Positions 1,135 through 26,644 of a stretch of DNA of 27,386 nucleotides are shown piece by piece. Position 1 is the first letter of the stretch. Each line of letters opens with the position of its first letter. The DNA lies in the NCBI GenBank assembly GCA_039815375.1, contig JBCBZJ010000032.1, positions 1 through 27,386 of the forward strand, given 5' to 3'. The stretch is from Verrucomicrobiota bacterium. Its GTDB lineage: Bacteria; Verrucomicrobiota; Verrucomicrobiia; Opitutales; Coraliomargaritaceae. Both the position numbers and the translations under genes were made by a program. The notes under the pieces are model-generated. The model did not search any database. It was not told where the DNA came from and saw nothing but the letters and a program-made list of their open reading frames with translations.

Positions 1135-1165
<31 letters not shown>

Positions 1166-11201: not shown

Positions 11202-12638
11202 TTAGAGCTCTGAGTGCTCTTCAGGTTGACCCTTTTTCCAGACCTGACTCTGAACTTCTATTTCCTTGTCCCAGTCCTGTGGTCCAAGCGGATCATAGAT
11301 CGGGTCGAAATCCTGTGCCGGATGATCTTTGATGTAGTTGAAGAGTTCTTTGACTTTTTCTCCGAGTTTCGGGTCGCCGATCAAGTCATTCTCCTCGAAT
11401 GGATCCTTCTCAAGGTCGTATAGTCTGTCCGGTTTGCGTGTCGTGTTAATGTAGAGTTTATAACGAAAGTCTCGGACGACTCGATCGCGGAAGTTAAACT
11501 GGTTCTCGACACTGTTTTCCGTCAACTGTGCCCCGTTGCCTCCGCCCATAGAGAGGTTGAATTTACGAGGACCCATTCTGGAGCTTCCGTAAAAGACGTC
11601 CACCAGTGAATGGCCATCGTAGGTGTAGTTCGGGTCGACTGAGCTTCCAGCCAGATTTGTGAATGTCGGTAGCATGTCGACGATATTGGCTGGTGCTTTT
11701 GAAATGGCATCCTGCGGAACAGAGCCGGGTTGAGAAATGATAAAAGGCATACAGGCACCCGCTTCACTGTAACGGGTTTTGGCACCTTTGACTTTTACGC
11801 CATTGATTGTTCCTGCGATCTGGTCAGCCGTTCCGTTATCCGTCGTAAACACAAAGAGGGTGTTTTCCCGAAGACCAAACTTCTCTGCCGCATCGACCAG
11901 CTTACCTACCATTTTGTCGGCGTAGCGAACCATCGCCAGATGCTGACCGAGTTTTCCCTCCGCATTTGGTTCGTTCGGGGTGGCCACCAAGGGTGTGTGG
12001 GGTAGGCACATCGCATAGTAGAGGAACATTGGTTGATCCTTATGCTCTTTCATGAAGTTTACTAAGAAGTCAGTAAAGACGTCTTCTCCGAACCGGTCTA
12101 CATAGGTTTTGCTTCCTTCTTTTGTATGGATGTAGGGGTCATAGTAACGTTTCTTGCTAGCCTTTACGCCAGTTTCGAAACCGGTCCACATGCAATAGTC
12201 GTCGTAACCGTGCAGTTGCATGGCATTTGGTTGCACACGAAAGTCGTTTACCTGCCACTTGCCGGCAGCAGCCGTTTTGTAGCCAGCATTCCGAAGATTT
12301 TTGGCAATACTTGGATTCTTGTTTGGGTCGTAGTGGATCCCTCCGCCCCAGCGCGGAACATCCCAGTGGTTCACCCAACCATGGCGAAAGGGGTATTGAC
12401 CTGTGGCAAATGAAAGCCGTGTTGGTGTGCACTGTGGCATGACGTAAAAATTTTCAAAGCGCATACCTTCTGAAGCAAGTTGATCAATGCGTGGCGTTTC
12501 GATATCGGTCGCGCCGTAGGCACTGATCCACTCCTTGCCCAAGTCATCCATTAAGATGAAGATGATGTTGGGTTTGCGTGCTTCCGCGTAGAGTAAACAG
12601 AATAGAATCAGGACAATACTGGTGAGGGCTTTTTTCAT
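11202..12638 (-). CDS. Secreted S1-family sulfatase
   Basis: Motifs PNIIFILMDDLGKE, CTPTRLSFATG, GKWQ and FTTDNGT. The start is moved from 12689 to ATG 12638, giving the signal peptide MKKALTSIVLILFCLLYAEA. Confidence 0.95.
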   Translation of the reverse strand: MKKALTSIVLILFCLLYAEARKPNIIFILMDDLGKEWISAYGATDIETPRIDQLASEGMRFENFYVMPQCTPTRLSFATGQYPFRHGWVNHWDVPRWGGGIHYDPNKNPSIAKNLRNAGYKTAAAGKWQVNDFRVQPNAMQLHGYDDYCMWTGFETGVKASKKRYYDPYIHTKEGSKTYVDRFGEDVFTDFLVNFMKEHKDQPMFLYYAMCLPHTPLVATPNEPNAEGKLGQHLAMVRYADKMVGKLVDAAEKFGLRENTLFVFTTDNGTADQIAGTINGVKVKGAKTRYSEAGACMPFIISQPGSVPQDAISKAPANIVDMLPTFTNLAGSSVDPNYTYDGHSLVDVFYGSSRMGPRKFNLSMGGGNGAQLTENSVENQFNFRDRVVRDFRYKLYINTTRKPDRLYDLEKDPFEENDLIGDPKLGEKVKELFNYIKDHPAQDFDPIYDPLGPQDWDKEIEVQSQVWKKGQPEEHSEL

Positions 12639-12799
12639 TTCTCTAAGGCGCCACTCATTGGTGTGGTCGAAGTAAGCTTCACTTACCAATTGTTTTTAGT
12701 GTGTGAACTTATAGTAAAGCGGGGTGTGTTCAGCTGACGTTTAGATTCTAGATAAAGGTTAGTCCTTTCAAGAATGTTTGTGGTGAGGGCACTCTCTCG

Positions 12800-13573
12800 C
12801 TACAATCGTGGCAAAGTGAGCCCACCATCCACGAGTATAGTCTGGCCGGTCGAGTAGGGGAATTCGCCTTTGGCAAGAGCACTCACCGCTTTGCCAACGT
12901 CCTCTGGAAGGCCCCAGCGTTTCGTCACGCAAAGCCCGTCTTCGATGAGCTTATCATATTTATCTGTTACGCTGCTGGTCATATCGGTTTTTGTCACACC
13001 TGGTCGGACTTCGTAAACGGGAATGTCATATTCTCCTAATCGGGCTGCGAATAGAGCAGTCATCATTGCGATACCCGCTTTGGCTACGCAATATTCGCCA
13101 CGGTTGACCGAGGCGACTGTGGCAGAGATTGAACCGATATTGATAATTGAAAAGAAATCTTTGTTATCGTTAGTCTTTTGCTCGATCATCCAGCTGGCAG
13201 CAGCCTGGGTCAGAAAGTAGGGGCCCTTCAGGTTTGTGCCGACCACGTAATCGAAGCTTTCTTCGTTAGCCTCAAGGATGTCTTTTCTTTCCTTTGGTGC
13301 AACTCCGGCGTTGTTGACCAAAACGTTGAGTTTACCAAAGTGTTTTTTGATTTTTGCAAGTATAGCCTTTCGAGTATTCGCTGAACTGATGTCACCTTGA
13401 CAGTACAGGACATCGGCACCGAAATCCTTAAGTAACTTGATCGGTTCAGAAATGGCTAACTCGTCGCGTAAACCGTTAATGGCAATATCAAACCCTGATT
13501 CGACTAGCTTTGCAGCGCAGCCGAAGCCAATGCCTCGACTGCCACCTGTAATAAATGCGACTGGTTTACTCAT
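12800..13573 (-). CDS. SDR-family oxidoreductase (3-ketoacyl-ACP-reductase-like, probably acting on a sugar)
   Basis: TGGSRGIG, LVNNAG, catalytic YCVAK and terminal VDGG motifs. Confidence 0.92.
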   Translation of the reverse strand: MSKPVAFITGGSRGIGFGCAAKLVESGFDIAINGLRDELAISEPIKLLKDFGADVLYCQGDISSANTRKAILAKIKKHFGKLNVLVNNAGVAPKERKDILEANEESFDYVVGTNLKGPYFLTQAAASWMIEQKTNDNKDFFSIINIGSISATVASVNRGEYCVAKAGIAMMTALFAARLGEYDIPVYEVRPGVTKTDMTSSVTDKYDKLIEDGLCVTKRWGLPEDVGKAVSALAKGEFPYSTGQTILVDGGLTLPRL

Positions 13574-13575
13574 TG

Positions 13576-14727
13576 CTATGCTTTTAGTTCGGGTAGCTCA
13601 ATCCACTTGCGTTCATCGGAGCTTTGCAGGCCAAGCTCAGCGAGTTGCACGCCCTTTGCGCCTTCAAGTAGGTTCCAGGGGAAGGGCTCGTCGAGCACGA
13701 CGTGGCGCAAAAACAATTCCCACTGGATTTTAAAAGCATTTTCGTAGGTCTCTTGCTCCGGCACCTTCTGCCAACTATTCATGAAATCGATGGGTTGTGG
13801 TATATCAGGATTCCAAACTGGTCGAGGTGTATTACCATAGTGCTGTGTCCAAACATCACGTAGGCCGACGATCGCGGATCCTTTTGTGCCATCGACTTGT
13901 ATCGTGAGTAGGTCGTCACGACGGACACGAACGTTCCATGAAGAGTTGAAGTGGCAAACAACACCATTCTCGAGTTCGAAGGTGGAGTAGGCTGAGTCGT
14001 CCGCTGTGCACCTATAAGCCTTTCCTTCTTCATCGATACGTTCAGGGATATGGGTGGTCGCAAGGCAGGAGACACGCTTCACTTTACCAAAGAGATTATC
14101 CATGACGTAGCGCCAGTGGCAGAGCATGTCGATAGCGATGCCGCCACCGTCCTCCTTACGATAGTTCCACGATGGGCGTTGTCCCGGCACAGAGTGGCCT
14201 TCGAAGACCCAATATCCGAATTCACCGCGTACAGAGATAATTTCACCAAAGAATTCGTTTTCAACAAGACGCTTGAATTTCACCATACCCGGAAGCCAGA
14301 GCTTATCCTGAACGACGCCATTCTTTACACCTGCGTCCCGGCAGACTTTGTAGAGCTCGTAGGCGTCAGCAGTCTTGATCGCAGTGGGCTTTTCGCAGTA
14401 GACGTGCTTTCCTGCGGTGGCAGCAGACTTAACTGCTTCAAAGCGGCGGAGGGTGGTCTGTGCATCAAAGTAAATCGGGTAGGTTGGATCGGCCATCACG
14501 CTATCGAGATCAGTCGTGTATTTCTCGACACTCGACTGAGCGATCAAGGCCTTCAGTTTGTCTTCATTGCGGCCGACAAGGATCGGGTCCGGCACAATGC
14601 ACTCAGTTGGGCTGACTTTAATGCCGCCTTGCTTAATGATAGCGTCGACCGAACGAAGCAGATGCTGATTAGCACCCATGCGTCCGGTGACGCCGTTCAT
14701 AATGATACCGATCGTATGTGTCTTCAT
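13576..14727 (-). CDS. Gfo/Idh/MocA-family NAD(P)-dependent oxidoreductase
   Basis: N-terminal Rossmann segment [22 protein letters not shown] and [11 protein letters not shown]. Confidence 0.92.
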
Positions 14728-14755
14728 AAGTCTTCAAGCTAACTGGTTAACGAGC

Positions 14756-15568
14756 TTAGAGCTGCTGTTTGTAGGCCGCCGCTATCTTCTCAAGATATTC
14801 GTCCTGGTTGCTTTCCCAATGGCGGGTCGAAAAGACTTCAACCTCAATAGCGCCTTCAAAACCTGCGCTCTCAACGAGCTTGCGGATACCGCGATTGTCG
14901 ATGCATCCTTCGCCCATGAGGCCACGGTCGTTAAGTATGTCAGTAGTTGGCGTCATCCAGTCACAGACATGGAATCCGATAATACGCTTACCGGCACGCT
15001 TGATTTCATGTTCGAGTTTCGGATCCCACCAGATGTGATACACATCGGCTGCGATGCCGACCCATTCGTCGCCGAGTTGGTCAATCATATCGTTACATTG
15101 GCCGATCGTATTTACGGCACTGCGACAGTCGGCATACATAGGGTGAAGTGGCTCGATGGAAAGCATGACATCGACTTGACTCGCGTGATCGATCAAACAG
15201 GCGATACCTTCCGTGATATGGCGGCGATTTTCGAAAAGGCTGAGTTCCGGTTTTGCACCGCAGACGAGAACGACTTGCGGTGCACCGATGGCAGCGGCCT
15301 CGTCGAGAGCTCTTTTGTTATCGTCAAGGACAGCCCGTTTCTCGGTTTCATCCAAGTAAGGATAGAAGCCGCTCCGAACAAGAGAGACTGCGTTTAGCCC
15401 ATGGTCATTCAGCATCCTTCTGCTTTCGGTGAGCGGACGACCGTCAAGCCACTGACGCCAGAGTCCGACTCCCGGCACACCGGCGGCAGAATACTTTGCA
15501 CAAGCTGTGGGGAGGTCCCACGGTTTGGTCGTCATGGTGTGGATGGCTAGCCGCTTTAGATTTTCCAC
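14756..15568 (-). CDS. Sugar phosphate isomerase/epimerase (xylose-isomerase-like TIM barrel, AP-endonuclease-2 family)
   Basis: Metal-ligand motifs LSIEPLHP, DVYH, FHVCD, RGLMGEG and IEVEVF. Start is GTG 15568 or TTG 15574. Confidence 0.88.
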   Translation of the reverse strand: MENLKRLAIHTMTTKPWDLPTACAKYSAAGVPGVGLWRQWLDGRPLTESRRMLNDHGLNAVSLVRSGFYPYLDETEKRAVLDDNKRALDEAAAIGAPQVVLVCGAKPELSLFENRRHITEGIACLIDHASQVDVMLSIEPLHPMYADCRSAVNTIGQCNDMIDQLGDEWVGIAADVYHIWWDPKLEHEIKRAGKRIIGFHVCDWMTPTTDILNDRGLMGEGCIDNRGIRKLVESAGFEGAIEVEVFSTRHWESNQDEYLEKIAAAYKQQL

Positions 15569-15570
15569 GA

Positions 15571-16107
15571 TCAAAAGCGATGGGTTTTCTCAATATGAAT
15601 GATGGTCATCTCACTGTCTTCTAGGATTTCGTAACTGTGCTCAAGAGCGGCGTCGAATTTCAATGCATGTCCTGGTCCGAGGATATGCTTCTCGCGAGGT
15701 AGAGAAATACGGATACGCCCTTTTCGGAGCCAGCAGATCTCGAATTCGTCACCGTGGGCCTCTGGTTTGCTCAGAGAATCACCTGCCTTTGCGGTAGCTC
15801 GAAAACATGAGATACCTTTAAACTGAACCCGCTCAAAGATAAAGGGGCCAGATTCGTAGAATTGTGCTTCCTCAGACTGCGCGGAGCAGGACTCAGCCAA
15901 ACTCAATAAATCAGTTGCAGAGAGATGAAAGACACGAGCCAGTCGATAGAGGGTATCAAGCTCGATCATGTTCTGGTTTCGCTCGAGCTTAGATAAGCCT
16001 GCAATCGATACACCCGATTTCTGTGACACGTCCTCCAGAGTCATCCCTGCGCGTTTCCTTAGATCGCGAACAATAGAAAAATCGAGGGTCAATTCTTGAG
16101 GTTTCAC
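15571..16107 (-). CDS. XRE-family HTH regulator with C-terminal cupin domain
   Basis: HTH segment VRDLRKRAGMTLEDVSQKSGVSIAGLSKLERN; cupin motifs EAHGDEFEICW and LGPGHALKFDAALEHSY. Confidence 0.9.
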   Translation of the reverse strand: MKPQELTLDFSIVRDLRKRAGMTLEDVSQKSGVSIAGLSKLERNQNMIELDTLYRLARVFHLSATDLLSLAESCSAQSEEAQFYESGPFIFERVQFKGISCFRATAKAGDSLSKPEAHGDEFEICWLRKGRIRISLPREKHILGPGHALKFDAALEHSYEILEDSEMTIIHIEKTHRF

Positions 16108-16180: not shown

Positions 16181-18274
16181 ATGGCTAAAACTGCCCAGAA
16201 AAGCGAAGGTTTTGATACAATTCCTCAGGAGATACTGGATCGTTTGACCCGTGTGGATATGCCTTCCGTTCGCGGTATCCAGCCATCGGACGAGACTCTG
16301 TTGGTTTCCGGAGTCACCGTGCCGGTCTATCGGTGCGAAGCGCTTGTTCTCGGTAGCGGTGCGTCTGGTATGCGCTCTGCGGTCGAGCTAAAACGGAGAG
16401 GTATCGATGTCCTTGTGGCCAGCACAGGTCTCTTCGCCGGCACCTCAGCCTGTTCGGGCTCTGACAAGCAAACGCTCTATACCGCCAGCACGGATTACAA
16501 AGGTGACGACTTTGTCAAATATGCGGAGAACCTATGTGCTGGTGGTGCGATGAACTTCTCAACTGCATATATCGAAGCTGTCGGTTCGATTGATGCAATC
16601 GGTGGGCTTCAGTTTGTCGGCCTGCCTTTACCGCAAGATGATCATGGAGCGATTTTACGCTACCAGACCGACCATGACGAAGCTGGGCGTGCCACGAGCT
16701 GTGGACCGCGAACGTCTAAACTTATGGTCAAAGTGCTCTTTGATGAAGCGCTGATGCTGGGTGTCCGTATTTTACCAAGTTGCAGCGGTATACGTATCGT
16801 CAAGGAAACGAGAGATGGCAGCGAGCGCGTTATCGGTATGATTGCATTGCATCGTGAAGAAAAGCGAAACGCATATGGGCTGGTTTTCATTCAATGCGAA
16901 AGCCTTGTTATTGCAACGGGCGGTCCCGGTGAACTCTATCGTGATAGTGTCTACCCACATCATTGTCATGGGGGTCTAGGTATTGCCCTCGAAGCGGGCA
17001 TTAAGTTGACCAACCTGACTGAGAGCCAGTTCGGTATCGGCACGCCACGGACTAAGTTTCCCTGGAACTTATCCGGAACCTATGTTCAGGTTATGCCAAG
17101 GGTTTACTCAGTCGGCAAAGATGGCAAAGAAATTAATTTTCTAAAGCGTTATTATCGAACCACTCAAGAGATCGCCTCCAATATTTTCCGCAAGGGCTAT
17201 CAGTGGCCGTTTCATTCGATGCGCATGTTGGATTTCGGCTCTAGTCTTTTTGATTTGGCCATTTTCCTTGAGCGTCAGGCAGGTCGAAAGGTTTACCTGG
17301 ATTTCCTACATAATCCTGAGCCCGTTGATGAGGGCGGGGAGTTCTCACTTGATGAGCTTGATTCTGATGTGCGTGCTTACCTCGAAAAGAGCGAAGCACT
17401 TTACGATTTGCCGATTGATCGGCTACGCTGTATGAATCCCTTGGCAATTGAGCTCTACAAGATGCATGGAACTGATCTGACAAAGGAGCCACTTGAGTTT
17501 GGGATGAACAATCAGCATATGAATGGAGGTATCCTGATAGATGACTGGGGGCAGACCAGTCTCGACGGTTGCTACGCTATTGGTGAGGCCGCCGGTAGTC
17601 ATGGTGTGACGCGTCCGGGAGGAGCAGCACTCAATTCGGGTCAGGTCTTTGGTAAACGCGTTGCGATTGCGATTAAGCGTTCGCGTATTGAAAGGAAGTG
17701 GGTTTCTCCAAAGTGCTTAAATATCGAAAAAGCGATTGATTGCGCTCTTACAGATGCAGAAAGCTACACCAAAAACGATGGAGGTCTTTTGTCGAAGGAG
17801 GTGAAAAGAGACATACAGGCCCGGATGAGTGACTCAGCGGGTATAATCTGTTCAGGTTCTGATGTCAGAAAAGCACTGGGATCGGCACGCGCACTCCGGG
17901 AAAAGGTAGAGTCCGAGGGATTTGAGGTAAGCTCTGCGTCTCTAGTTGGACAGGCATTTCGTTGGAAGCATATGGTTTATGTTTCCGAGGCCGTTCTGAC
18001 TGCACTCGACTACTACATCGAAAATGGTGGCGGCAGCCGGGGGGCACGTGTTATTTGTTCAGAGGAAGGCATGCATTGCCCGGAAGCATATATTGAGGAT
18101 TTAAGTCGTTTCCGTTTCATTGAAGAACGGACGCAAGACAGAGAAGTAAAACTGGTGGTCCATCTTGAGGGCAGTAAATTTGTAGTGAGCTCACATCGGG
18201 TAGACCTAAGTCCGAAAGTTCAGCGCGAGTTTTTCGAAAAAGGCTGGGGGTACTACTTAAAGAAAGAAGGCTGA
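16181..18274 (+). CDS. FAD-binding oxidoreductase of the SdhA/FrdA/NadB flavoprotein superfamily, standalone
   Basis: Motifs LVLGSGASG, LVIATGGPG, QHMNGGI and YAIGEAAGSHGVTRPGG. No Fe-S or membrane-anchor subunit genes are adjacent. Confidence 0.85.
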   Translation: MAKTAQKSEGFDTIPQEILDRLTRVDMPSVRGIQPSDETLLVSGVTVPVYRCEALVLGSGASGMRSAVELKRRGIDVLVASTGLFAGTSACSGSDKQTLYTASTDYKGDDFVKYAENLCAGGAMNFSTAYIEAVGSIDAIGGLQFVGLPLPQDDHGAILRYQTDHDEAGRATSCGPRTSKLMVKVLFDEALMLGVRILPSCSGIRIVKETRDGSERVIGMIALHREEKRNAYGLVFIQCESLVIATGGPGELYRDSVYPHHCHGGLGIALEAGIKLTNLTESQFGIGTPRTKFPWNLSGTYVQVMPRVYSVGKDGKEINFLKRYYRTTQEIASNIFRKGYQWPFHSMRMLDFGSSLFDLAIFLERQAGRKVYLDFLHNPEPVDEGGEFSLDELDSDVRAYLEKSEALYDLPIDRLRCMNPLAIELYKMHGTDLTKEPLEFGMNNQHMNGGILIDDWGQTSLDGCYAIGEAAGSHGVTRPGGAALNSGQVFGKRVAIAIKRSRIERKWVSPKCLNIEKAIDCALTDAESYTKNDGGLLSKEVKRDIQARMSDSAGIICSGSDVRKALGSARALREKVESEGFEVSSASLVGQAFRWKHMVYVSEAVLTALDYYIENGGGSRGARVICSEEGMHCPEAYIEDLSRFRFIEERTQDREVKLVVHLEGSKFVVSSHRVDLSPKVQREFFEKGWGYYLKKEG

Positions 18275-18317
18275 GTAATTTTGGAGGCACTTCCGCGTTC
18301 AAGAAGGTGCTTTTTCT

Positions 18318-19193
18318 ATGGATTCCTACGCACTCAACACGATCATTGCTGCGCTGATTTATTCGCTTGCAGCCATATTCTCCAAAGCTGCTCTGGAGAA
18401 GGGGTGTGGCGTTCTTCGTCTTTCCTTCCTGATCAATCAGATATTCGTTCTGGTATTTTGTGCCACTCTCGGATGGAATATGGAGCCATTTGCCTGGTCC
18501 CAAATTCACCTTCCGGTCTTCGCTGGTCTGCTGTTCTTTATTGGACAGATCTTTACTTTTGCGGCGATTCGAATAGGCGATGTCAGCCTGCAAACTCCGG
18601 TAATGGGAACGAAGGCGGTCTTTGTCGCCATTATCGCGATTGTATTCGGATTAGAGGAAGTATCCTGGAAAATCGGTTTTGCAACGATTGTCGCTGCCCT
18701 TGCGGTTGCTTTACTAGGATTCTCGGAAGGTGCTAAAAAACGCTTGTGTTTGACAATTCTGCTGAGCCTCCTGAGTGCACTCAGTTTTGCAGGTTCGGAT
18801 CAAATGGTGGGTGTGTTCGGAGCTTACTTCGGCAAGAATTCATTCCTTATCATTACGATTGTGGTAAATGCACTCCTGTCGTTCGGTATGATTCCTTTTT
18901 TCAACGCACCACTTCGAGCGATTCCGGGGAAATCTCTTGTGTGGGCGGTTGCTGCAGCTTTAGGAATGGGCCTTCAAGCGGTCATTCTCAACTACACGTT
19001 GGCTGCATCCGGCGAGGTTGTTGCGGTTAATATCATCTACAGCTTACGAGGACTTTTCAGTGTCATTCTCGGGCTTTTAGTAGGGTTTATATTCGCCATA
19101 CAAATCGAGCATATGTCTTGGCGATCCAGAATACAGCGTATCGTTGGTGCCTTGCTTATCTCACTTGCTGTGGTGATTGCTCTATGTGCTTGA
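18318..19193 (+). CDS. DMT/EamA-family transporter
   Basis: 291 aa with about ten hydrophobic segments in two repeats; EamA-like segments AAIFSKAAL and FTFAAIRIGDVS...P. Confidence 0.85.
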   Translation: MDSYALNTIIAALIYSLAAIFSKAALEKGCGVLRLSFLINQIFVLVFCATLGWNMEPFAWSQIHLPVFAGLLFFIGQIFTFAAIRIGDVSLQTPVMGTKAVFVAIIAIVFGLEEVSWKIGFATIVAALAVALLGFSEGAKKRLCLTILLSLLSALSFAGSDQMVGVFGAYFGKNSFLIITIVVNALLSFGMIPFFNAPLRAIPGKSLVWAVAAALGMGLQAVILNYTLAASGEVVAVNIIYSLRGLFSVILGLLVGFIFAIQIEHMSWRSRIQRIVGALLISLAVVIALCA

Positions 19194-19342
19194 AAAAGCC
19201 TGCACGATTTATTTTGAAGTAATGCTTTGAGAGGCTGTTAGCTTCTTAGATATGGAGCAATGGCCAAAGTTAACCGGAACCGATTTGCCTGATTGAACAC
19301 CATTTTATCTCCTTTATCCATGCAGACAGGTTGGATTTTAAG

Positions 19343-19672
19343 ATGACTCCACTTTACAGAATAACGACAAGAACAAGGCTTCTGATCATGGTGATTGCGC
19401 TAAGCATAGCATTCCATCTTCTTGTGGTTGTGAAGCTTGGAGGCTACCGCGTGGTTGTTGATCATTTTTTTGACAAGAATGCCACCGTCGAGATGCCAGC
19501 AATCATGCAGATGCGTCAATTGGAGGAGGAGTACACCGTCAATCTGGAGAAGAAGGGAACGCTCGAATCTCCCAGTCCGTTTAGAGAGATGCCCCTGAAA
19601 CTAGTCATAGACACAGAGGCATCAGCTACAGAGTTGGAAAATGCGGCAGCTCCGACAAAAGCGGATAATTAG
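19343..19672 (+). CDS. Small single-pass membrane protein with a TonB/TolA-like S-x3-H anchor; paralogue of the N-terminus of 25640..26644
   Basis: [20 protein letters not shown]...[11 protein letters not shown] aligns by eye with IVLVLSIGLHLLALFIFG...PEFEVNLEQR. Start is ATG 19343 or TTG 19331. Confidence 0.7.
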
Positions 19673-20103
19673 AAGTTTCCGAAGGAAACATATTGGATTT
19701 CTGCAGCTGCACAGGCGTCAAGGACCTCAACGGTTTTGTAGTGCGGAGATATTGGATCTGCGATAACGACTACGACAGTTTTCTGGCCCATTCGGTCTGA
19801 TGTGCCTTTTACGCGCTTCAGCGTAGCAATCAGGCCATACAATGTGACTCGTTCTGAAGGACTGGCAATAGGTGCTCCGTTCAAATCGACGCTGCCATCG
19901 GGAAGAATATCAATTGTGTGACGGTTCGGGAGCTCGTCGGTAGGCTGAGCTTTTGAGTCAGTCGGCAATTGAATACCGAGGTCTGTCTCTTCCTTGATCA
20001 AGGTTGTCGTCACCATAAAGAAGATCAGCAGCAGGAAGACCACGTCAATCATCGGAGTTAAATCCGGCTTGGTCTTCTCATTGAATATGGCTTCAGATTT
20101 CAT
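19669..20103 (-). CDS. exbD: ExbD/TolR-family biopolymer transport protein
   Basis: [20 protein letters not shown] with the essential Asp; VVIAD...VEVLDAC. Confidence 0.93.
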
Positions 20104-20108
20104 TCTGG

Positions 20109-20519
20109 TTATTTTTCACTTTGGTATGCGGCGAAGATGATATTACTCAATCCCACCGAAGCGCATGCTTGCATCACGTCGTTTACGAACTGGTGCTCTG
20201 TGCCGCTGTCAGCGCGAAGAAATACGCGCACGCCTGCGTCAAATTCGAGTTCTTCCTTTAGGCGTTTTTTTAGATCGTCCAAGGTAACTTCGTAAACACC
20301 GGAGTAGAGTGTGCCATCACGCGTTACGGTTACTGTTGTGCGCTCACCTTTCTCCTCAGGGAGGATGGAATTTAAGGAAATGGGAACCTCAATCGGTTTC
20401 TTCTCAGCAGTGATCATATTGGCCACCGTCATGAAGAAGACGATCAATAGGAAAACGATGTCGATCATGGGAGTTAGATCGACATCTCCATCGTCTTCGT
20501 TGGCTTTCCAGAGCTTCAT
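20109..20519 (-). CDS. exbD: ExbD/TolR-family biopolymer transport protein (second copy)
   Basis: [26 protein letters not shown]...VNDVMQAC. Confidence 0.93.
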
Positions 20520-20520
20520 G

Positions 20521-21276
20521 CTAGCTTCGTGCGCGGATCAGATCTGAGTAGAGTCGGCCAAGGACAAGATTTACCTCTGCGACAATCTTACCGTAGCGAT
20601 TGCGAAAAAAGAAGAAGAAGAACATGGCCGGGATGGCGATACTCATGCCGGAAGCCGTCGTTATCAGCGCCTCGGAGATATTATCAGCGAGTAATTCGGG
20701 CTTGCCCATACCTTCACTTGCAATCGAGTTGAAGGCTTTGACCATACCGGAGACGGTTCCGAGTAGACCTACCATAGGAGCGAGTGCAGCTATGATGGAC
20801 AGGTAGTTTACGATCACATAGGGGCCAGAGAGTTCCTTTGCTGCAGCGTTTTCAAAGGCCTTTTCAACTGCGTCCGGGACAAACTTGTCCTGCTTGATCT
20901 GGTCGAGGCCGTAGTTGAAGGTATTTGTCACAGGTCCTGGGTTCTCTTCGCATATCTTATGAGCTTCATCTATGTTCATTGTGCTGCAGGCCTTATCGAG
21001 TTCTTCAATAACATCTTCGTCAATGAAGTTGGCTTTACGAATGGAGAGGAAGTTGAAGACAGCAAAGCCGAATGTGGCAATGGACAGAATGCCAAGAGGA
21101 ATCATCGCCCATCCGCCGGCAAAGAGCATGTCGAGCAATGTTTTTTGTCCGTTATCTTCTGCGACAAGCTGGGCTTGCTCTGCACCGGCGGCGTCTTGTG
21201 CAAATGCAGGGATAGCTAAAACAAAGAGGCATGCTAGTATGCTGCTAAGTAAGAGTCTGGGTAACTTGTGTTTCAT
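20521..21276 (-). CDS. exbB: MotA/TolQ/ExbB proton-channel protein
   Basis: [17 protein letters not shown] and [11 protein letters not shown]...AIPA; N-terminal signal-peptide-like segment. Confidence 0.93.
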
Positions 21277-21329
21277 ATTTTGTTTTTGTTAGTTAGATTG
21301 TCAGATTTATTTCTAGGAATACTTTGAAA

Positions 21330-22433
21330 TTAAACACCACTTTCGGTTTGATATTTCTCCAGCCAGGGGCTGTTCGGGTAGAAGATTTCAAATTCACGGA
21401 CCAAACGTTGGGCTGCTGTATCGTCGCCCGTTTCGGTGTATCCGCGGATTAGCAGATAATACAGCTCAGCCTTGAAGGTCGCTTCCACAGTTGTAAGCAC
21501 CATTGCACGAGACAGAAAGCGAAGGCCCTCGCGTATATCGCCCTCAGAGAAACCGACACGGCCGCGAGCCAAGCAGTAGGTGAGGAAGTTCTCGTCTTCT
21601 CGGTCCAGTTCTTCGATGTTCTCAAATAGTGCACGAGCATTTTCGCTGTCTCCAGAAACTGCGCTACTATAGCATGCCCAAAGCAAGCTCTTTTGGCGCA
21701 AAATATTGTTAGAAGATTGCGCGAGTGAACCGTAAATCTTTGCCGTCAATTGATCTTGGCCTTTTGTGCGTAGAGAGTCTGCTATCCGAAACGCCATTTC
21801 AGCAAACGCATCCTCGTCGAGTGTCATGTATAGTTGCGACAGAAGCTTTTCAAGTACTTTGAAATTTTCCTCGGTAATGCATCTGGATACCAAGTATTCA
21901 GCTTGTAATATATACTCACCCGATAGTGATGCCCATGGCATTTCAAGAGAGATTTCAAGAGCCCTCTTCAGTGGAGCGTTTCGGACTACAGCCTTGTAAT
22001 ATCTTTCAGAGAGAGAGTGGAAATTGGACTTAGAAGGATGTATTTCAAGGAAGCGTAGGAGTGCCCCAGCAGTGTTCTTCATACCTCGATAAAGAGGCCC
22101 ATAATTCCCTTCCTCTGCCTTCGAAGTCATGGAGTTGAAGTTTTTGGGAAGCTCCAGGGTTAATGTCGTGTTGATCGAGTCGATCGGCATTTCTGCTTCT
22201 GCTCCAGGCATATTTGGAAGGCTAAGGACAAGATTGCCATTCCGCATGCCTTTCAAAAAGAGCGTTTTCTTGTTGGCGTCGATCAAGCGGACCGGCTCAT
22301 CCAGAGAGAAGTCCTTTGAGGCTGGAACTCCTTCTGGAAGTTGAGGAAGATCCAAGACCTGAGCGGTCAGGCAAGAAGCTGCTATGAAACTAGCTCCGAT
22401 GCAGAAGATGGATTTAAAGAGTGAAGGTTTCAT
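21330..22433 (-). CDS. Secreted helical/TPR-like protein (367 aa)
   Basis: Signal peptide, a beta-rich N-terminal part, then TPR-like helices ending in the YbgF-like ...LVREFEIFYPNSPW. Overlaps the upstream gene by 20 nt. Confidence 0.75.
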   Translation of the reverse strand: MKPSLFKSIFCIGASFIAASCLTAQVLDLPQLPEGVPASKDFSLDEPVRLIDANKKTLFLKGMRNGNLVLSLPNMPGAEAEMPIDSINTTLTLELPKNFNSMTSKAEEGNYGPLYRGMKNTAGALLRFLEIHPSKSNFHSLSERYYKAVVRNAPLKRALEISLEMPWASLSGEYILQAEYLVSRCITEENFKVLEKLLSQLYMTLDEDAFAEMAFRIADSLRTKGQDQLTAKIYGSLAQSSNNILRQKSLLWACYSSAVSGDSENARALFENIEELDREDENFLTYCLARGRVGFSEGDIREGLRFLSRAMVLTTVEATFKAELYYLLIRGYTETGDDTAAQRLVREFEIFYPNSPWLEKYQTESGV

Positions 22434-25400
22434 CGATCAATTTATGGGCTTCTGTCTTTTCTAGAATTGCAAGTCTGGTGCGGTATTCGGCGAGGAGTTG
22501 TTGGACGCTTTCAGCCTCTCCCATTTCTTTGAGTGTGAGCATGTCATAGTAGTAGGCCCATGAGACTGTTTCAGCGTAACCACCGTAAGCGACAATCAGT
22601 CTCTCGAAGAAGCCGTGAGCCTCTGAGAGTTGTCCGTTGCGACGATAGGCAAGGCCAAGATGAAGATGTGCTTCGGCATGGCCCAAGCCCTTCCATGACG
22701 GATTCCTTAAAATCATGCCAAGGACGTCGATAGCTTTCTGGTCCATGCCAAGTTGGGAGAGAATCTGTCCCTTTTTCAAGTGAGGTTCCGCATCCTTGAT
22801 TTTCATACCGAAGCGCCCGGTAAGAAGCTCGTAATAGCCAAGTGCAGTCTGCCAATTTTCTTTGGTGCTATTTTTTTCTGCCATACGCATAGAAAGTTCA
22901 GCCATGGCAAGAACGGCATCGTATGCAGCTGGCGAGTGCGGGTGTATTTGCAACGAATAGCTGTAGAGTTTAATCGCTTCTTCAGGTTGCGATTCTTCCC
23001 GTTTGGAAGCTGCCCAGTTAATGACTGCTGGAGGCGCAGCAGCCAACTCTTCATACGAATAGATGATTTTACTCTTTTGAGAGGCATCTTTGAGCGCGTC
23101 GAGTGCCATCTCGCTACGCATTTCTAAAACCTTAAGCTCGTCTGTTTTAGCCTGTTTGAGTAGGGCAGGGAATATGCCACCAGGTGTGTGCGGGCTCAGG
23201 CGATTGCTCTTTGAAACGAAAACTTCTTTGAGTTTCGAAAGTTCATCTAGAACCATTTCCTTGGTAACTACAGGGCCTTTCGGTGCAATTTCCTGACCGG
23301 TAGCCGGGTCGGTCTTGATTTCGGTCTCAAGAATTCTTGTCCGGAAATTTCTATTTCGGATCAATTTTTTGGCCAGCGACCGATCCAGAAAGACTCCCTC
23401 GCCACTTTGCATGTATTGATATTGATATGACCGGTCCTTGAGGAAGGTATTGCGGAATGCATCGTCTGCTATCAAACGATCCAGAAGCATGTTGGACGCG
23501 TCGAATGTTTTCTCATATTTACTATAGTCCTTGATATAGTCTGTGATAAGTTGATCAACGGCATATCGGTTAAGGTCGTTACCTAGAGTACGTATCGCTT
23601 CAGCATGAATTTCGAAACGCTTTGCATACCTACCTTCCTTGTCGTGGATCATACCCATCCGGTAGTGGGCATCTGCGAGCTGCCCTGTTTCAGAATGACG
23701 TTCGATGTAATCGGCAAGGATTTCGATAGCTTCGTCTGATTTGCCACTCTCATCGAGCACTTCGGCTAGGGCGAATATTGATTTTGCAATGAAGGCCGGA
23801 TTTTCAGTGTAATTTTCAACATTCCGGTAGTGTTCAGCGGATTCAGCGTAAGCCCGACGCTCGCGCTTTAAATCACCTAAATAGAGTTCAGCTTCACCGC
23901 GCAAAAGACTGCTCGGATACTTTTCGACAAAGCTCGTAAATTGAGCCTCGGCTTTCTGCTTATCTTGCAGCCCGTAAAGGCAGATCGCGTAACGGTAGTA
24001 GACATCCTCATAGTAGCTACTCTTTTCAGTATAGTCTGCGATGAATGCACTCATGGTTTCGGCAGCACTTGCATAATCCGCAAGGAGAATTTGTGACAAT
24101 CCGTTCCAGTAGCGGGTTGTTTCATAAAGCGGCTCTCGGGCTTTGAAACGCGAAACTAAAGGAGACACATATGCATTTAGTTCTGCAAATTTAGTTTCCT
24201 GCACGTAGTAGTTACCGATGTAGTTCATCAACTGGGCAGCCACCACAAAGCTTCTGGGTTCTTTAAGGTAATCCTTAGAAAGTGTTACAAGTTCTTTATA
24301 GCGCTTCTGCTTTGAATAAAAGGCAGCCAGTCCAAGTGTAACTTCGTCCTGGTACTTTGCGTATTTTTCATTGCCGAGATATTCATTTGCCAGCATCTCA
24401 AGCATATGGACATCGACTAATATGTCGGCCTGTTTGAAGGCAATGAAGAGGAAGTCTTCAACCTGTTCGTGATCCTGATAATCCTGGTAAAGATGATAGA
24501 ATGCCCAGAGTGCTTCCCAGTGGCGTTCAGTCTCTTTGAAGACTCGCGCGATACGCCATTTCATGTCGACATCGTAAGAACGAATCTCCCGAACTGCTTT
24601 AAGGTTTGCTTCAGCAGACTTTAGTTGCCCATCAATTACGGCATAATTATCTGACTCGGTAGAGAGATAGCGAACCTTGTTTTTCAGGCTGGATACCAGA
24701 TCTCGGTAAAATTCAATGATTGAGTCGCGCGATTTTACGAAAGTATACAGCAGGATAGCATGATCGTAGTTCTTTTGCTCAAACATGGCGTCTCCGGTTT
24801 TCAACAAAGTGATATTGAATTTCGGGTCGAAGACTGCTTCGTATCGGCCAGTCAGATAGCGAAGGTAGGGTGTGATTGCTTCCGCTTTGCCTGAAGCAAG
24901 GTAGCCCTGAATCAACCAGGATGCTGCTTGTGCTCGAAGTTCAGGGTTTAGTACTGAAACATTGAATGTTTCGTAAAAAATCGGTATACCCTCTGCAGCC
25001 CTATTGGACGAGATGTAGATCCGACTCATTTTATCGCGTGCCGCATTACGAAGGGTGTTATTCTTACTGCGACGGTAGAGCCAATCATAATTCTCTATCG
25101 CTTTATCATATTGCTCCAGATCATTGTAGACTCCTCCCAGATTGAAACGGACAAAGTCTCGACGAGTGCCGGTCGGAAAAAGCTCAACATAGTCTTCATA
25201 TTGCTGGGCTGCGCTTTGTAGTGTGGCCTCAGATTTGGTTTTGCTGTACTCGTCCTGATAGGACAGGGCCAGGAGGAAAATGAGGGATTCCTGCTGGCCG
25301 GGAACTTCCGCGCTTCGCTTTAAAAGTTCTTCAATTACAGGACGTAATGCAACGAGGTCTCCGCTTAGTCCTTCTTTCAATTTCTGGTAAAGGATCGTGT

Positions 25401-25506
25401 CCGATTCTTCATTCAGTGCACTTTGGCTGTAAAGGCTCGAGGTCACTACCAAGGAGAATACTCCAAGAAGTATAACGTAGAACTGAGGTAAACGTGGGGA
25501 ATTCAT
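22414..25506 (-). CDS. Large secreted TPR-repeat protein (~1030 aa)
   Basis: Signal peptide and many TPR/YbgF-like repeats, e.g. FNLGGVYNDLEQYDKAIENY, AEAQFTSFVEKYPSS and AHLHLGLAYRRNGQLSEAHGFFE. Start is ATG 25506 or TTG 25536. Confidence 0.88.
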   Translation of the reverse strand: MNSPRLPQFYVILLGVFSLVVTSSLYSQSALNEESDTILYQKLKEGLSGDLVALRPVIEELLKRSAEVPGQQESLIFLLALSYQDEYSKTKSEATLQSAAQQYEDYVELFPTGTRRDFVRFNLGGVYNDLEQYDKAIENYDWLYRRSKNNTLRNAARDKMSRIYISSNRAAEGIPIFYETFNVSVLNPELRAQAASWLIQGYLASGKAEAITPYLRYLTGRYEAVFDPKFNITLLKTGDAMFEQKNYDHAILLYTFVKSRDSIIEFYRDLVSSLKNKVRYLSTESDNYAVIDGQLKSAEANLKAVREIRSYDVDMKWRIARVFKETERHWEALWAFYHLYQDYQDHEQVEDFLFIAFKQADILVDVHMLEMLANEYLGNEKYAKYQDEVTLGLAAFYSKQKRYKELVTLSKDYLKEPRSFVVAAQLMNYIGNYYVQETKFAELNAYVSPLVSRFKAREPLYETTRYWNGLSQILLADYASAAETMSAFIADYTEKSSYYEDVYYRYAICLYGLQDKQKAEAQFTSFVEKYPSSLLRGEAELYLGDLKRERRAYAESAEHYRNVENYTENPAFIAKSIFALAEVLDESGKSDEAIEILADYIERHSETGQLADAHYRMGMIHDKEGRYAKRFEIHAEAIRTLGNDLNRYAVDQLITDYIKDYSKYEKTFDASNMLLDRLIADDAFRNTFLKDRSYQYQYMQSGEGVFLDRSLAKKLIRNRNFRTRILETEIKTDPATGQEIAPKGPVVTKEMVLDELSKLKEVFVSKSNRLSPHTPGGIFPALLKQAKTDELKVLEMRSEMALDALKDASQKSKIIYSYEELAAAPPAVINWAASKREESQPEEAIKLYSYSLQIHPHSPAAYDAVLAMAELSMRMAEKNSTKENWQTALGYYELLTGRFGMKIKDAEPHLKKGQILSQLGMDQKAIDVLGMILRNPSWKGLGHAEAHLHLGLAYRRNGQLSEAHGFFERLIVAYGGYAETVSWAYYYDMLTLKEMGEAESVQQLLAEYRTRLAILEKTEAHKLIDETFTL

Positions 25507-25639
25507 GCGGGTTTTGACAATGGCTTGTTTGATCAAGCTACTTTCAGAATTAGTGTCTTATGTAACAACTAAAGCCTTTTTGCAGGTTTATTGATTTCTT
25601 TGAGCGGGATACTGTTAAAGCCAAATAGAGTTTTCATAC

Positions 25640-26644
25640 CTATAAGGTTTGGAGAAAGAATTTACCTTCTGTCTCATCAGCCATCGCATTGAGTAGTTGT
25701 AGGCTGCTCTCTCTTTTTCTCTTGTTGGATGGCCCAAGTGGGTTGACGAAGTCATGTATGATCAAAGTGATCTTTCCTCGCTTCATACTCTTGAGGACAT
25801 TTTCCGTACGGGTTTGGTCAAGGGTGTCGTCAAAATCGGCAAACCAATAAATTGTATCAACGCCTTCGTCGCGAAGGAATTCTAAGCTATCTTGGGAACC
25901 ACCATTTGCCGTCGTGCCATTCGGTTTTTCCGAAAAGGCAATATGACCACGCCCCTGCTTTTCGAGGTCACTCCAAATTTCCGCAAAATTCTTGTTTCTC
26001 TCAAACAAGCCTTCAATGAAGGGTTGGGTTGAAAATTTGCCGATCTTCTTGTGCTTTTTAATGGCTCTTTCGTAGCTTTTGAGTGGGTAAATATCTGTAT
26101 CCTCATCCCCTATCACACAACCAGGTGCAAAAACTACGACCGCATCCTTGAAGTTCTCGTTGACCTGCTCGAGCACTTTGTCGATTGCCTTGTGGGTTGA
26201 GAAGGAAATATCGAGGAGTACGCCAAGTTTCGTTGCTGTAACTTCGGTGCCAAAAAGCGTGGCTGTAATCGCCATTTCCCGTATTCCTCCAGCGCCACCG
26301 CCGTTACCAAAGCCGCCACTTCCGCGCCCGTAGGAGGAGTAGCTGTCAACATTTACGTCAATATCGAGTGCGGGTAATACAATATCTGGAGAATCCACCG
26401 TTATCGGATTGGGCCTCGGTGGTGAACTCTCTTCGTTTCGCTGCTCAAGATTTACCTCGAACTCTGGTATTTCCTCGGGGGGTGGTTCGAGAGGAGGGGC
26501 TTCAAAAGTGACTTCTTCACGCATTACTACTTGAGCGATCTTGACGACGCCAAAGATAAAGAGTGCTAGAAGATGCAAACCAATACTTAATACGAGAACG
26601 ATTGTCAGAGCGCCTCGAGTAGACTTCTTGCTAGACAGATTCAT
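25640..26644 (-). CDS. Membrane-anchored protein with TonB-like S-x3-H TM helix, Pro/Glu-rich and Gly-rich linkers, and a vWA-like C-terminal domain
   Basis: VLSIGLHLL; EAPPLEPPPEEIP...PPRPNP; GRGSGGFGNGGGAGG; MIDAS-like LGVLLDISFS and later TIYWFADFDD. Confidence 0.75.
   Translation of the reverse strand: MNLSSKKSTRGALTIVLVLSIGLHLLALFIFGVVKIAQVVMREEVTFEAPPLEPPPEEIPEFEVNLEQRNEESSPPRPNPITVDSPDIVLPALDIDVNVDSYSSYGRGSGGFGNGGGAGGIREMAITATLFGTEVTATKLGVLLDISFSTHKAIDKVLEQVNENFKDAVVVFAPGCVIGDEDTDIYPLKSYERAIKKHKKIGKFSTQPFIEGLFERNKNFAEIWSDLEKQGRGHIAFSEKPNGTTANGGSQDSLEFLRDEGVDTIYWFADFDDTLDQTRTENVLKSMKRGKITLIIHDFVNPLGPSNKRKRESSLQLLNAMADETEGKFFLQTL

Follow-up and report, generated by a model that had tools for sequence, protein, structure and literature searches.

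Section 8 of PMC12204202, a study from 2025, describes a gene cassette of the Planctomycetes-Verrucomicrobia-Chlamydiae (PVC) bacteria that combines tetratricopeptide repeat (TPR), tolQ-like and two tolR-like genes with a vWA (von Willebrand factor A) 'force transducer', and whose function is stated there to be unknown; many of these transducers carry an SHLS-type motif. Here we analyze such a cassette in a 27,386-nucleotide stretch of DNA, called the window, which is an entire contig (C5; GenBank JBCBZJ010000032.1) of a Verrucomicrobiota genome of 3.56 Mb and 99.9% completeness (GCA_039815375.1, Coraliomargaritaceae). It resembles the published Tichowtungia-type cassette in its TPR, tolQ-like and two different tolR-like genes and in an anchored, proline-rich arm with the S/H helix and a vWA head. 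Likened by description, it differs in having two TPR genes, an additional headless arm and only the S and H of SHLS, and its arm gene lies upstream, as in two of the 18 surveyed cassettes with an adjacent arm. A preliminary description of the window had proposed an undescribed system; as PMC12204202 already reports this kind of cassette, it is a known one, and the window cassette alone is an ordinary member of it. PA14 heads and orphan arms, which we discuss below, go unmentioned in section 8. A literature search joining PA14, ExbD and Verrucomicrobia returned nothing beyond the same paper, in whose available text PA14 does not appear; its supplement lay outside this search and may bear on novelty.

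The motor belongs to the family of Ton (ExbB-ExbD-TonB) and Tol-Pal, with which the cassette shares the Thr/Glu/Asp residues, an S-x3-H helix and a proline-rich linker. In contrast to both, the window has two different ExbDs and large TPR partners, and it is without a TonB/TolA C-terminal domain, receptor, TolB or Pal: in agreement with the preliminary description, Pfam detected none of these among the 21 window open reading frames (ORFs) scanned. The Myxococcus Agl-Glt machinery likewise combines a TolQ-like subunit with two TolR-like ones and includes TPR proteins and a vWA protein. The window vWA domain, however, sits on an inner-membrane arm and not on a surface adhesin, and no other Glt-type genes were seen among the flanks scanned. 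According to the available part of PMC6851124, one region of Fibrobacter succinogenes (FSU_2396-2403) holds TPR, ExbB and two ExbD genes and is up-regulated on cellulose, as are PA14-domain proteins; likened by gene content, it differs from the window in having an OmpA and a true TonB-family protein.

The cassette and its motor

Six co-oriented ORFs occupy 19669..26644 on the minus strand, separated in gene order by 103 bp, a 20-bp overlap, 53 bp, 1 bp and 5 bp; the ORF list and Pfam thus bear out the tightly spaced array that had been noticed initially. Promoter and terminator scans stayed at or near chance (9 vs 10.7 and 12 vs 7.4, respectively). The ExbB/TolQ-family proton channel (20521..21276, 251 aa; Pfam MotA_ExbB 7e-27) carries P167, T174, E202 and T207, which align with P141, T148, E176 and T181 of Escherichia coli ExbB. 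ExbD/TolR-family subunits 1 (20109..20519, 136 aa) and 2 (19669..20103, 144 aa) match Pfam ExbD with E-values of 1e-24 and 3e-22 and are 30% identical to each other. In each, D20 aligns with D25 of E. coli ExbD, and all 27 homologues in the respective alignment keep this Asp. The motor residues are therefore intact in all three proteins, as first proposed.

The giant TPR protein (22414..25536) comprises 1040 aa from a TTG start, with an ATG alternative at 25506, and matches many Pfam TPR families. It begins with a hydrophobic segment, has no lipobox and is modelled as an all-helical solenoid without a beta-barrel (predicted local distance difference test, pLDDT, 89.8). Its repeats are BamD/CpoB-like, and structure comparison yielded generic TPR solenoids (TM ≤0.24) and no specific solved structure. 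The small TPR-type protein (21330..22433, 367 aa), whose start creates the 20-bp overlap with the giant TPR stop, has a signal-peptide-like N-terminus, a single weak Pfam TPR_14 match (E 0.006) and look-alikes in Verrucomicrobiota and Planctomycetota.

The arm (25640..26644, 334 aa) heads the cassette and has no Pfam or NCBIfam match; close homologues bear the name Coraliomargarita sp. (67% identity), which suggests a Coraliomargarita-like bacterium of the Opitutales. In the model, a membrane helix (9-41) leads into a proline-rich linker of low confidence (42-122), followed by an alpha/beta head whose pLDDT exceeds 90. Of the SHLS-type helix motif, S20 and H24 are conserved, but not the L and the final S. 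H24, the D145-x-S147-x-S149 motif, which resembles a metal ion-dependent adhesion site (MIDAS), and D270 are invariant in 49 aligned homologues. Many top Foldseek rows for the head are vWA domains (Ku70/80, CMG2/ANTXR2, the CD11b I-domain), mixed with other Rossmann folds and none reaching E 0.001. Together, model, motif and these weak rows uphold the initial assignment of the first gene as a TonB-like membrane anchor with a vWA head.

In a phylogeny, cassette ExbBs form their own clade (96/95), apart from the ExbBs of the Ton operons in the window genome; it splits into class A, the window type, and class B, with some long branches. The giant TPR was matched in 31 of 41 relatives and reached class-A level in 27, so that the class-A cassette was not found in 14 of 41. 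Across the phylum its profile matched 107 of 301 genomes and 19 of 21 family genomes, in a survey that scored two candidates per genome and includes other classes. A carrier genome has between one and three class-A copies, and their sites vary. The giant TPR is followed by ExbB-ExbD-ExbD at 27 of 29 class-A loci; 18 of these cassettes have an adjacent arm and nine have none, one of the nine ending at a contig edge.

Relation to Akkermansia MUL1

Verrucomicrobiota take up mucin and fucoidan-type glycans without SusCD, by a route still to be explained. The giant TPR connects this question to the vWA transducers described in 2025. A family-wide search found a locus (L167) whose ExbB, ExbDs and 347-aa protein bear Akkermansia names, in the order mreB ... 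347-aa protein, giant TPR, ExbD, ExbD, ExbB. In the available parts of the literature, Amuc_0540 is MreB and Amuc_0546 a biopolymer transporter (PMC11480725), mul1A is amuc_0544, termed a mucin transport gene (PMC12570417), and MUL1B is amuc_0543, with ExbD/B listed among the components of the mucin utilization locus MUL1 (supplement of PMC13174399). From the protein names and by counting genes from Amuc_0540 to Amuc_0546, we infer that L167 is MUL1 and that its giant TPR is amuc_0544/mul1A.

A profile of the window-class giant TPR aligned in hhalign with the Akkermansia-type profile at 99.9% probability (E 7.7e-33) over 880 columns, end to end, compared with 88-93% over 169-225 columns for two unrelated TPR controls. 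This direct comparison supports the link to MUL1 that the preliminary description had drawn. The window cassette further shares with MUL1 an ExbB, two ExbDs and a gene of about 350 aa directly after the giant TPR. Its ExbDs are about 30% identical to the Akkermansia proteins and its ExbB only 33%; it therefore belongs to a paralogous class and is not an orthologue of the MUL1 protein. Since the gene order is permuted, the window cassette is a relative of MUL1 and not a member of it. No paper joining MUL1 to TPR and ExbD turned up in a literature search that did not reach the primary MUL1 paper, and tags Amuc_0543-0549 had no match in 12 of the 19 supplementary files of PMC13524802.

Loci in MUL1 order also occur outside Akkermansia: nine hand-picked cases (L177, L179-L186) come from other genera of its family, one of them named Roseibacillus. 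According to the available text of PMC13174399, aquatic members lack MUL1 synteny. Judged by gene order, our loci sit badly with this published view of a gut-specific MUL1 and put it in question. At two of these nine loci a sulfatase lies two to three genes downstream.

Arms encoded away from the motor

A profile of the arm's anchor and linker finds four copies in the window genome and up to seven matches in relatives. By head, the 66 matches include 25 long vWA-like, 18 PA14-like and seven window-type MIDAS vWA arms, besides smaller vWA classes. Support for the PA14-like head has low scores yet is consistent. Pfam gives a weak PA14 match (E 0.004), and the top Protein Data Bank rows (E ~0.2) are PA14 adhesins of the Epa type, whose alignment with the head coincides at the Asp-Asp pair; among these heads one Asp of the pair is invariant and the other at least 90% conserved. 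Two PA14-tipped orphan arms are encoded in the window genome. The one on C39 lies co-oriented between a sulfatase gene and GH95, GH95 and GH2 glycoside hydrolase (GH) genes; the one on C36 has no sulfatase, GH or esterase neighbours. Over 125 residues both are 57-73% identical to the window arm, and one groups with it in the anchor tree (Shimodaira-Hasegawa-like approximate likelihood ratio test, SH-aLRT, 94).

Short-arm orphans have a sulfatase, GH or esterase gene within two genes at 14 of 22 loci (13 without one esterase-only case; 11 of 16 with likely orthologues merged). By this criterion, 4 of 29 class-A cassettes, 1 of 9 class-B-type loci and 0 of 20 random sites of the window genome (G000) have such a neighbour, in a comparison made post hoc, with random sites from one genome and with related genomes that are not independent. 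Excluded from the counts are L118, L124, L128, L130 and L136, which have another architecture without the S-x3-H anchor helix, and L143 and L144, which adjoin ExbD genes. Five genomes of the window subclade whose cassettes are armless contain between one and six genuine orphan arms each.

In a quick tree of 33 anchors the head types are scattered: PA14 requires at least five changes and does not cluster relative to shuffled labels. The main anchor groups match the ExbB subclades, with many inner branches open. As heads do not cluster while anchor groups follow the motor, the pattern fits repeated head exchange on motor-matched anchors, as far as sequences can tell.

Three further arm observations stand apart. 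A seventh window ORF (19331..19672, plus strand, 113 aa), missed in the preliminary description, matches the arm profile with a membrane helix containing S-x3-H and part of the linker, the head being absent. It converges on the cassette, its stop overlapping ExbD2 by 4 bp, is conserved in genome G014 (L042:6040-6366, 46% identity) and could be a competitor for the motor or a decaying copy. An orphan arm beside GH28 (L131, G006:C29) occurs in a 98% complete genome without a class-A giant TPR match and stays unexplained if arms act in trans, unless a cassette was left unassembled. Window-order cassettes in the Akkermansia family (L171:12353-14065, L174:4366-7556, L176:13810-15201) have arms with PA14-like or ~550-aa heads, the latter presumably resembling prenyltransferase/squalene-cyclase repeats.

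A proposed glycan-handling motor with interchangeable arms

We favour, with moderate confidence, a reading in which the cassette is a MUL1-like periplasmic machine that captures or pulls in complex glycans, with arms setting the target. Two results speak for a part in glycan uptake: the homology of the giant TPR to its MUL1-type counterpart over the full length, and the position of many orphan arms next to genes of glycan degradation. Five ExbB and an ExbD1/ExbD2 pair would form a 5:2 motor, on which the arm helix would dock through S-x3-H as TonB does, and the proline-rich linker would transmit the pull. The two TPR proteins may serve as a periplasmic scaffold for enzymes or for a putative outer-membrane pore; no outer-membrane partner was found in our analysis. 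Arms encoded elsewhere could engage this motor in trans and determine its substrate, PA14 heads binding sugar through a Ca-binding Asp-Asp pair and the vWA head perhaps a protein partner through its MIDAS metal site. The SusCD-independent, energized glycan system of the preliminary description survives in part: a glycan role without SusD, which had no match in the window genome, is supported, and a sulfated substrate is not supported by the sulfatase context.

More tentatively, as a possibility that we would not yet expect to hold, the Verrucomicrobiota counterpart of SusCD might be a third kind of 5:2 motor. A shared ExbB-ExbD1-ExbD2-TPR-TPR engine at a neutral site would be programmed by interchangeable single-pass arms scattered in glycan loci, each having an anchor matched to its lineage and a PA14 lectin or vWA tip of its own, and MUL1 would be one member of a phylum-wide family that includes Roseibacillus-type genera. 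It is this dispersed-arm model that deserves testing. With arm genes located in glycan loci, arm-motor pairing, PA14 glycan specificity and the dependence of several substrates on one motor become accessible to experiment.

Several results weigh against a glycan-handling motor of this kind. An ordinary uptake route is available, as 14 TonB-dependent receptors in the window genome exceed the cut-off, with one next to sulfatases on C27. Most cassettes stand among housekeeping genes (recR/thrC, parB-LysM/lgt, ABC-F/hom), seven carrier genomes have at most two sulfatases, and six genomes without a cassette match have at least 13. With respect to MUL1, the order there is ExbB-ExbD-ExbD-TPR-TPR compared with TPR-TPR-ExbB-ExbD-ExbD in the window, no adjacent arm was detected at MUL1-order loci, and the small TPR aligns with the Mul1B-type protein at 61.6% probability, collinear from the N-terminus, when a control scored 70.9%. 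For Amuc_0546, soy medium gave a higher value than mucin medium (available part of PMC11480725). As for the arms, the window tip is a vWA domain and not a lectin, the PA14 matches fall below significance thresholds, and only 2 of the 8 long-vWA orphan loci have adjacent glycan genes. The number of arms does not follow that of sulfatases (rho 0.25, p 0.23), and the post hoc design of the linkage comparison lowers its weight.

Other functions for the motor

The alternative that survives best, although we regard it as unlikely, is a motor that handles proteins: it would move, release or position surface enzymes or adhesins, or remodel the envelope, with the glycan defect seen in MUL1 mutants being an indirect effect. 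The housekeeping neighbourhoods fit this, as do the BamD/CpoB-like repeats of the giant TPR and the presence of the cassette in some genomes with zero sulfatases. Proteins are also the usual ligands of vWA/MIDAS heads. The single class-B cassette of the window genome (C11, L001:6738-20000), in which the arm gene lies between ExbB and ExbD, is 88 kb from a sulfatase; before it lie genes for a protein of 970 aa whose N-terminus is pilin-like and for a lamin-tail/FN3/Calx surface protein of 1404 aa, and after it a PEP-CTERM gene. Protein handling is harder to reconcile with the enrichment of orphan arms beside carbohydrate-active enzyme and sulfatase genes and with PA14-type heads, which point to sugar binding. 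A core envelope role fits poorly with a cassette that is missing from two sites used by relatives and was not found in many near-complete genomes.

A considerably less probable function is that of an extra energizer for TonB-dependent receptors encoded elsewhere, the arm acting on the plug instead of TonB. The 14 receptors would provide clients, and in G001 an orphan vWA arm (L116) has a receptor and a Ton operon two genes away. Yet the arm heads lack the TonB C-terminal fold, no receptor was seen among cassette flanks, and cassette ExbBs are separated from those of Ton operons by the clade described above. The genome moreover has three ExbB-ExbB-ExbD-TonB-TPR operons of the same layout, with the TonB_C domain confirmed in one.

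Slightly less probable still is a motor for surface motility or adhesion that would resemble myxobacterial Agl-Glt in its pair of TolR-like subunits, its TPR scaffolds and a vWA adhesin. It has the same kinds of parts, a gliding role is proposed in the available text of PMC12204202, and one relative's arm matches GltJ over the linker (E 0.002, far below cut-off). Akkermansia muciniphila, which has a homologous motor and giant TPR, is however described as non-motile (available part of PMC12418764), and orphan arms adjoin degradative enzymes. Conserved outer-membrane or cytoplasmic Glt-type genes were absent among the flanking proteins scanned, no genome-wide Glt search having been made.

A Tol-Pal-equivalent cell-division motor is very improbable: the best NCBIfam matches are TolQ/TolR-like (below cut-off), the repeats are CpoB-like and some copies lie near parB, LysM or rodA, but the cassette is multi-copy, patchy and at different sites, unlike the single-copy Tol-like division locus considered in the preliminary description, with two ancestral-looking sites empty in the window genome, no TolB or Pal alongside, and a viable mul1A insertion mutant (available part of PMC12570417).

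Genomic surroundings

The cassette had been described as embedded in a sulfatase locus, with sulfatases on both sides, and this does not hold. The nearest complete sulfatase (11202-12689) lies 7.0 kb to the left with seven genes between, and on the right there is only a 70-codon sulfatase start, interrupted by the contig end (E 1.5e-4, below cut-off). In the eight genomes with full sulfatase lists, 2 of 15 cassettes are within 10 kb of a sulfatase, which is chance level compared with 10-16% of random 7-kb stretches simulated in three genomes; we therefore rejected membership in a sulfatase island as evidence. Nor is the neighbourhood a conserved feature or a sign of a sulfated substrate, given the carriers with few sulfatases and the closest orthologous cassette, in G014. 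The latter has the same gene order and headless arm (protein identity 61-89%) and is flanked by recR and thrC neighbourhoods, with a sulfatase 76 kb away. Comparing sulfatase load, as initially suggested, does show a difference between genomes with and without the cassette (medians 25 vs 4.5, p 0.024), but it is confounded by kinship and very small genomes and is not relied on here. The window genome itself has 51 sulfatases.

The parB-LysM/lgt and ABC-F/hom sites used by relatives are both empty in the window genome, and the GC content of the cassette is below that of the genome (0.466 vs 0.508). For these reasons the window cassette looks like a relocated or acquired accessory unit, as composition and position suggest.

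To the left of the cassette, positions 12800-16107 encode short-chain dehydrogenase/reductase (SDR), Gfo/Idh/MocA, isomerase-barrel and XRE-cupin proteins, likely a sugar-catabolism unit. The same set of four gene types occurs in G001 (L048:15931-19850, 79-84% identity), about 6 kb from the cassette though the cassette site differs. The stretch that follows (16181-19193) encodes an FAD protein of 697 aa and then an EamA-like transporter; the former is a relative of the fumarate reductase/aspartate oxidase flavoproteins but scores far below all family cut-offs.

Two candidate assignments were dropped: a TolB_N match in a protein of 228 aa, too short to count as TolB, and the label 'Verru_Chthon cassette A', considered for the C11 neighbour, which had no NCBIfam match. 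At L054 (G026:C4) three arm-like ORFs come directly after a giant and a small TPR, and the 20 kb examined contain no ExbB/ExbD. At G000:C54:34295-37201 an ExbB-family gene precedes two ORFs, of which one opens with a sequence resembling an ExbD helix (FSLSFLD); this may be the second vWA family of PMC12204202 (section 8), with a vWA protein in place of ExbD. Outside the cassette, window positions 1135-1165 match the G014 locus (L042:4057-4087) exactly over 31 bases.

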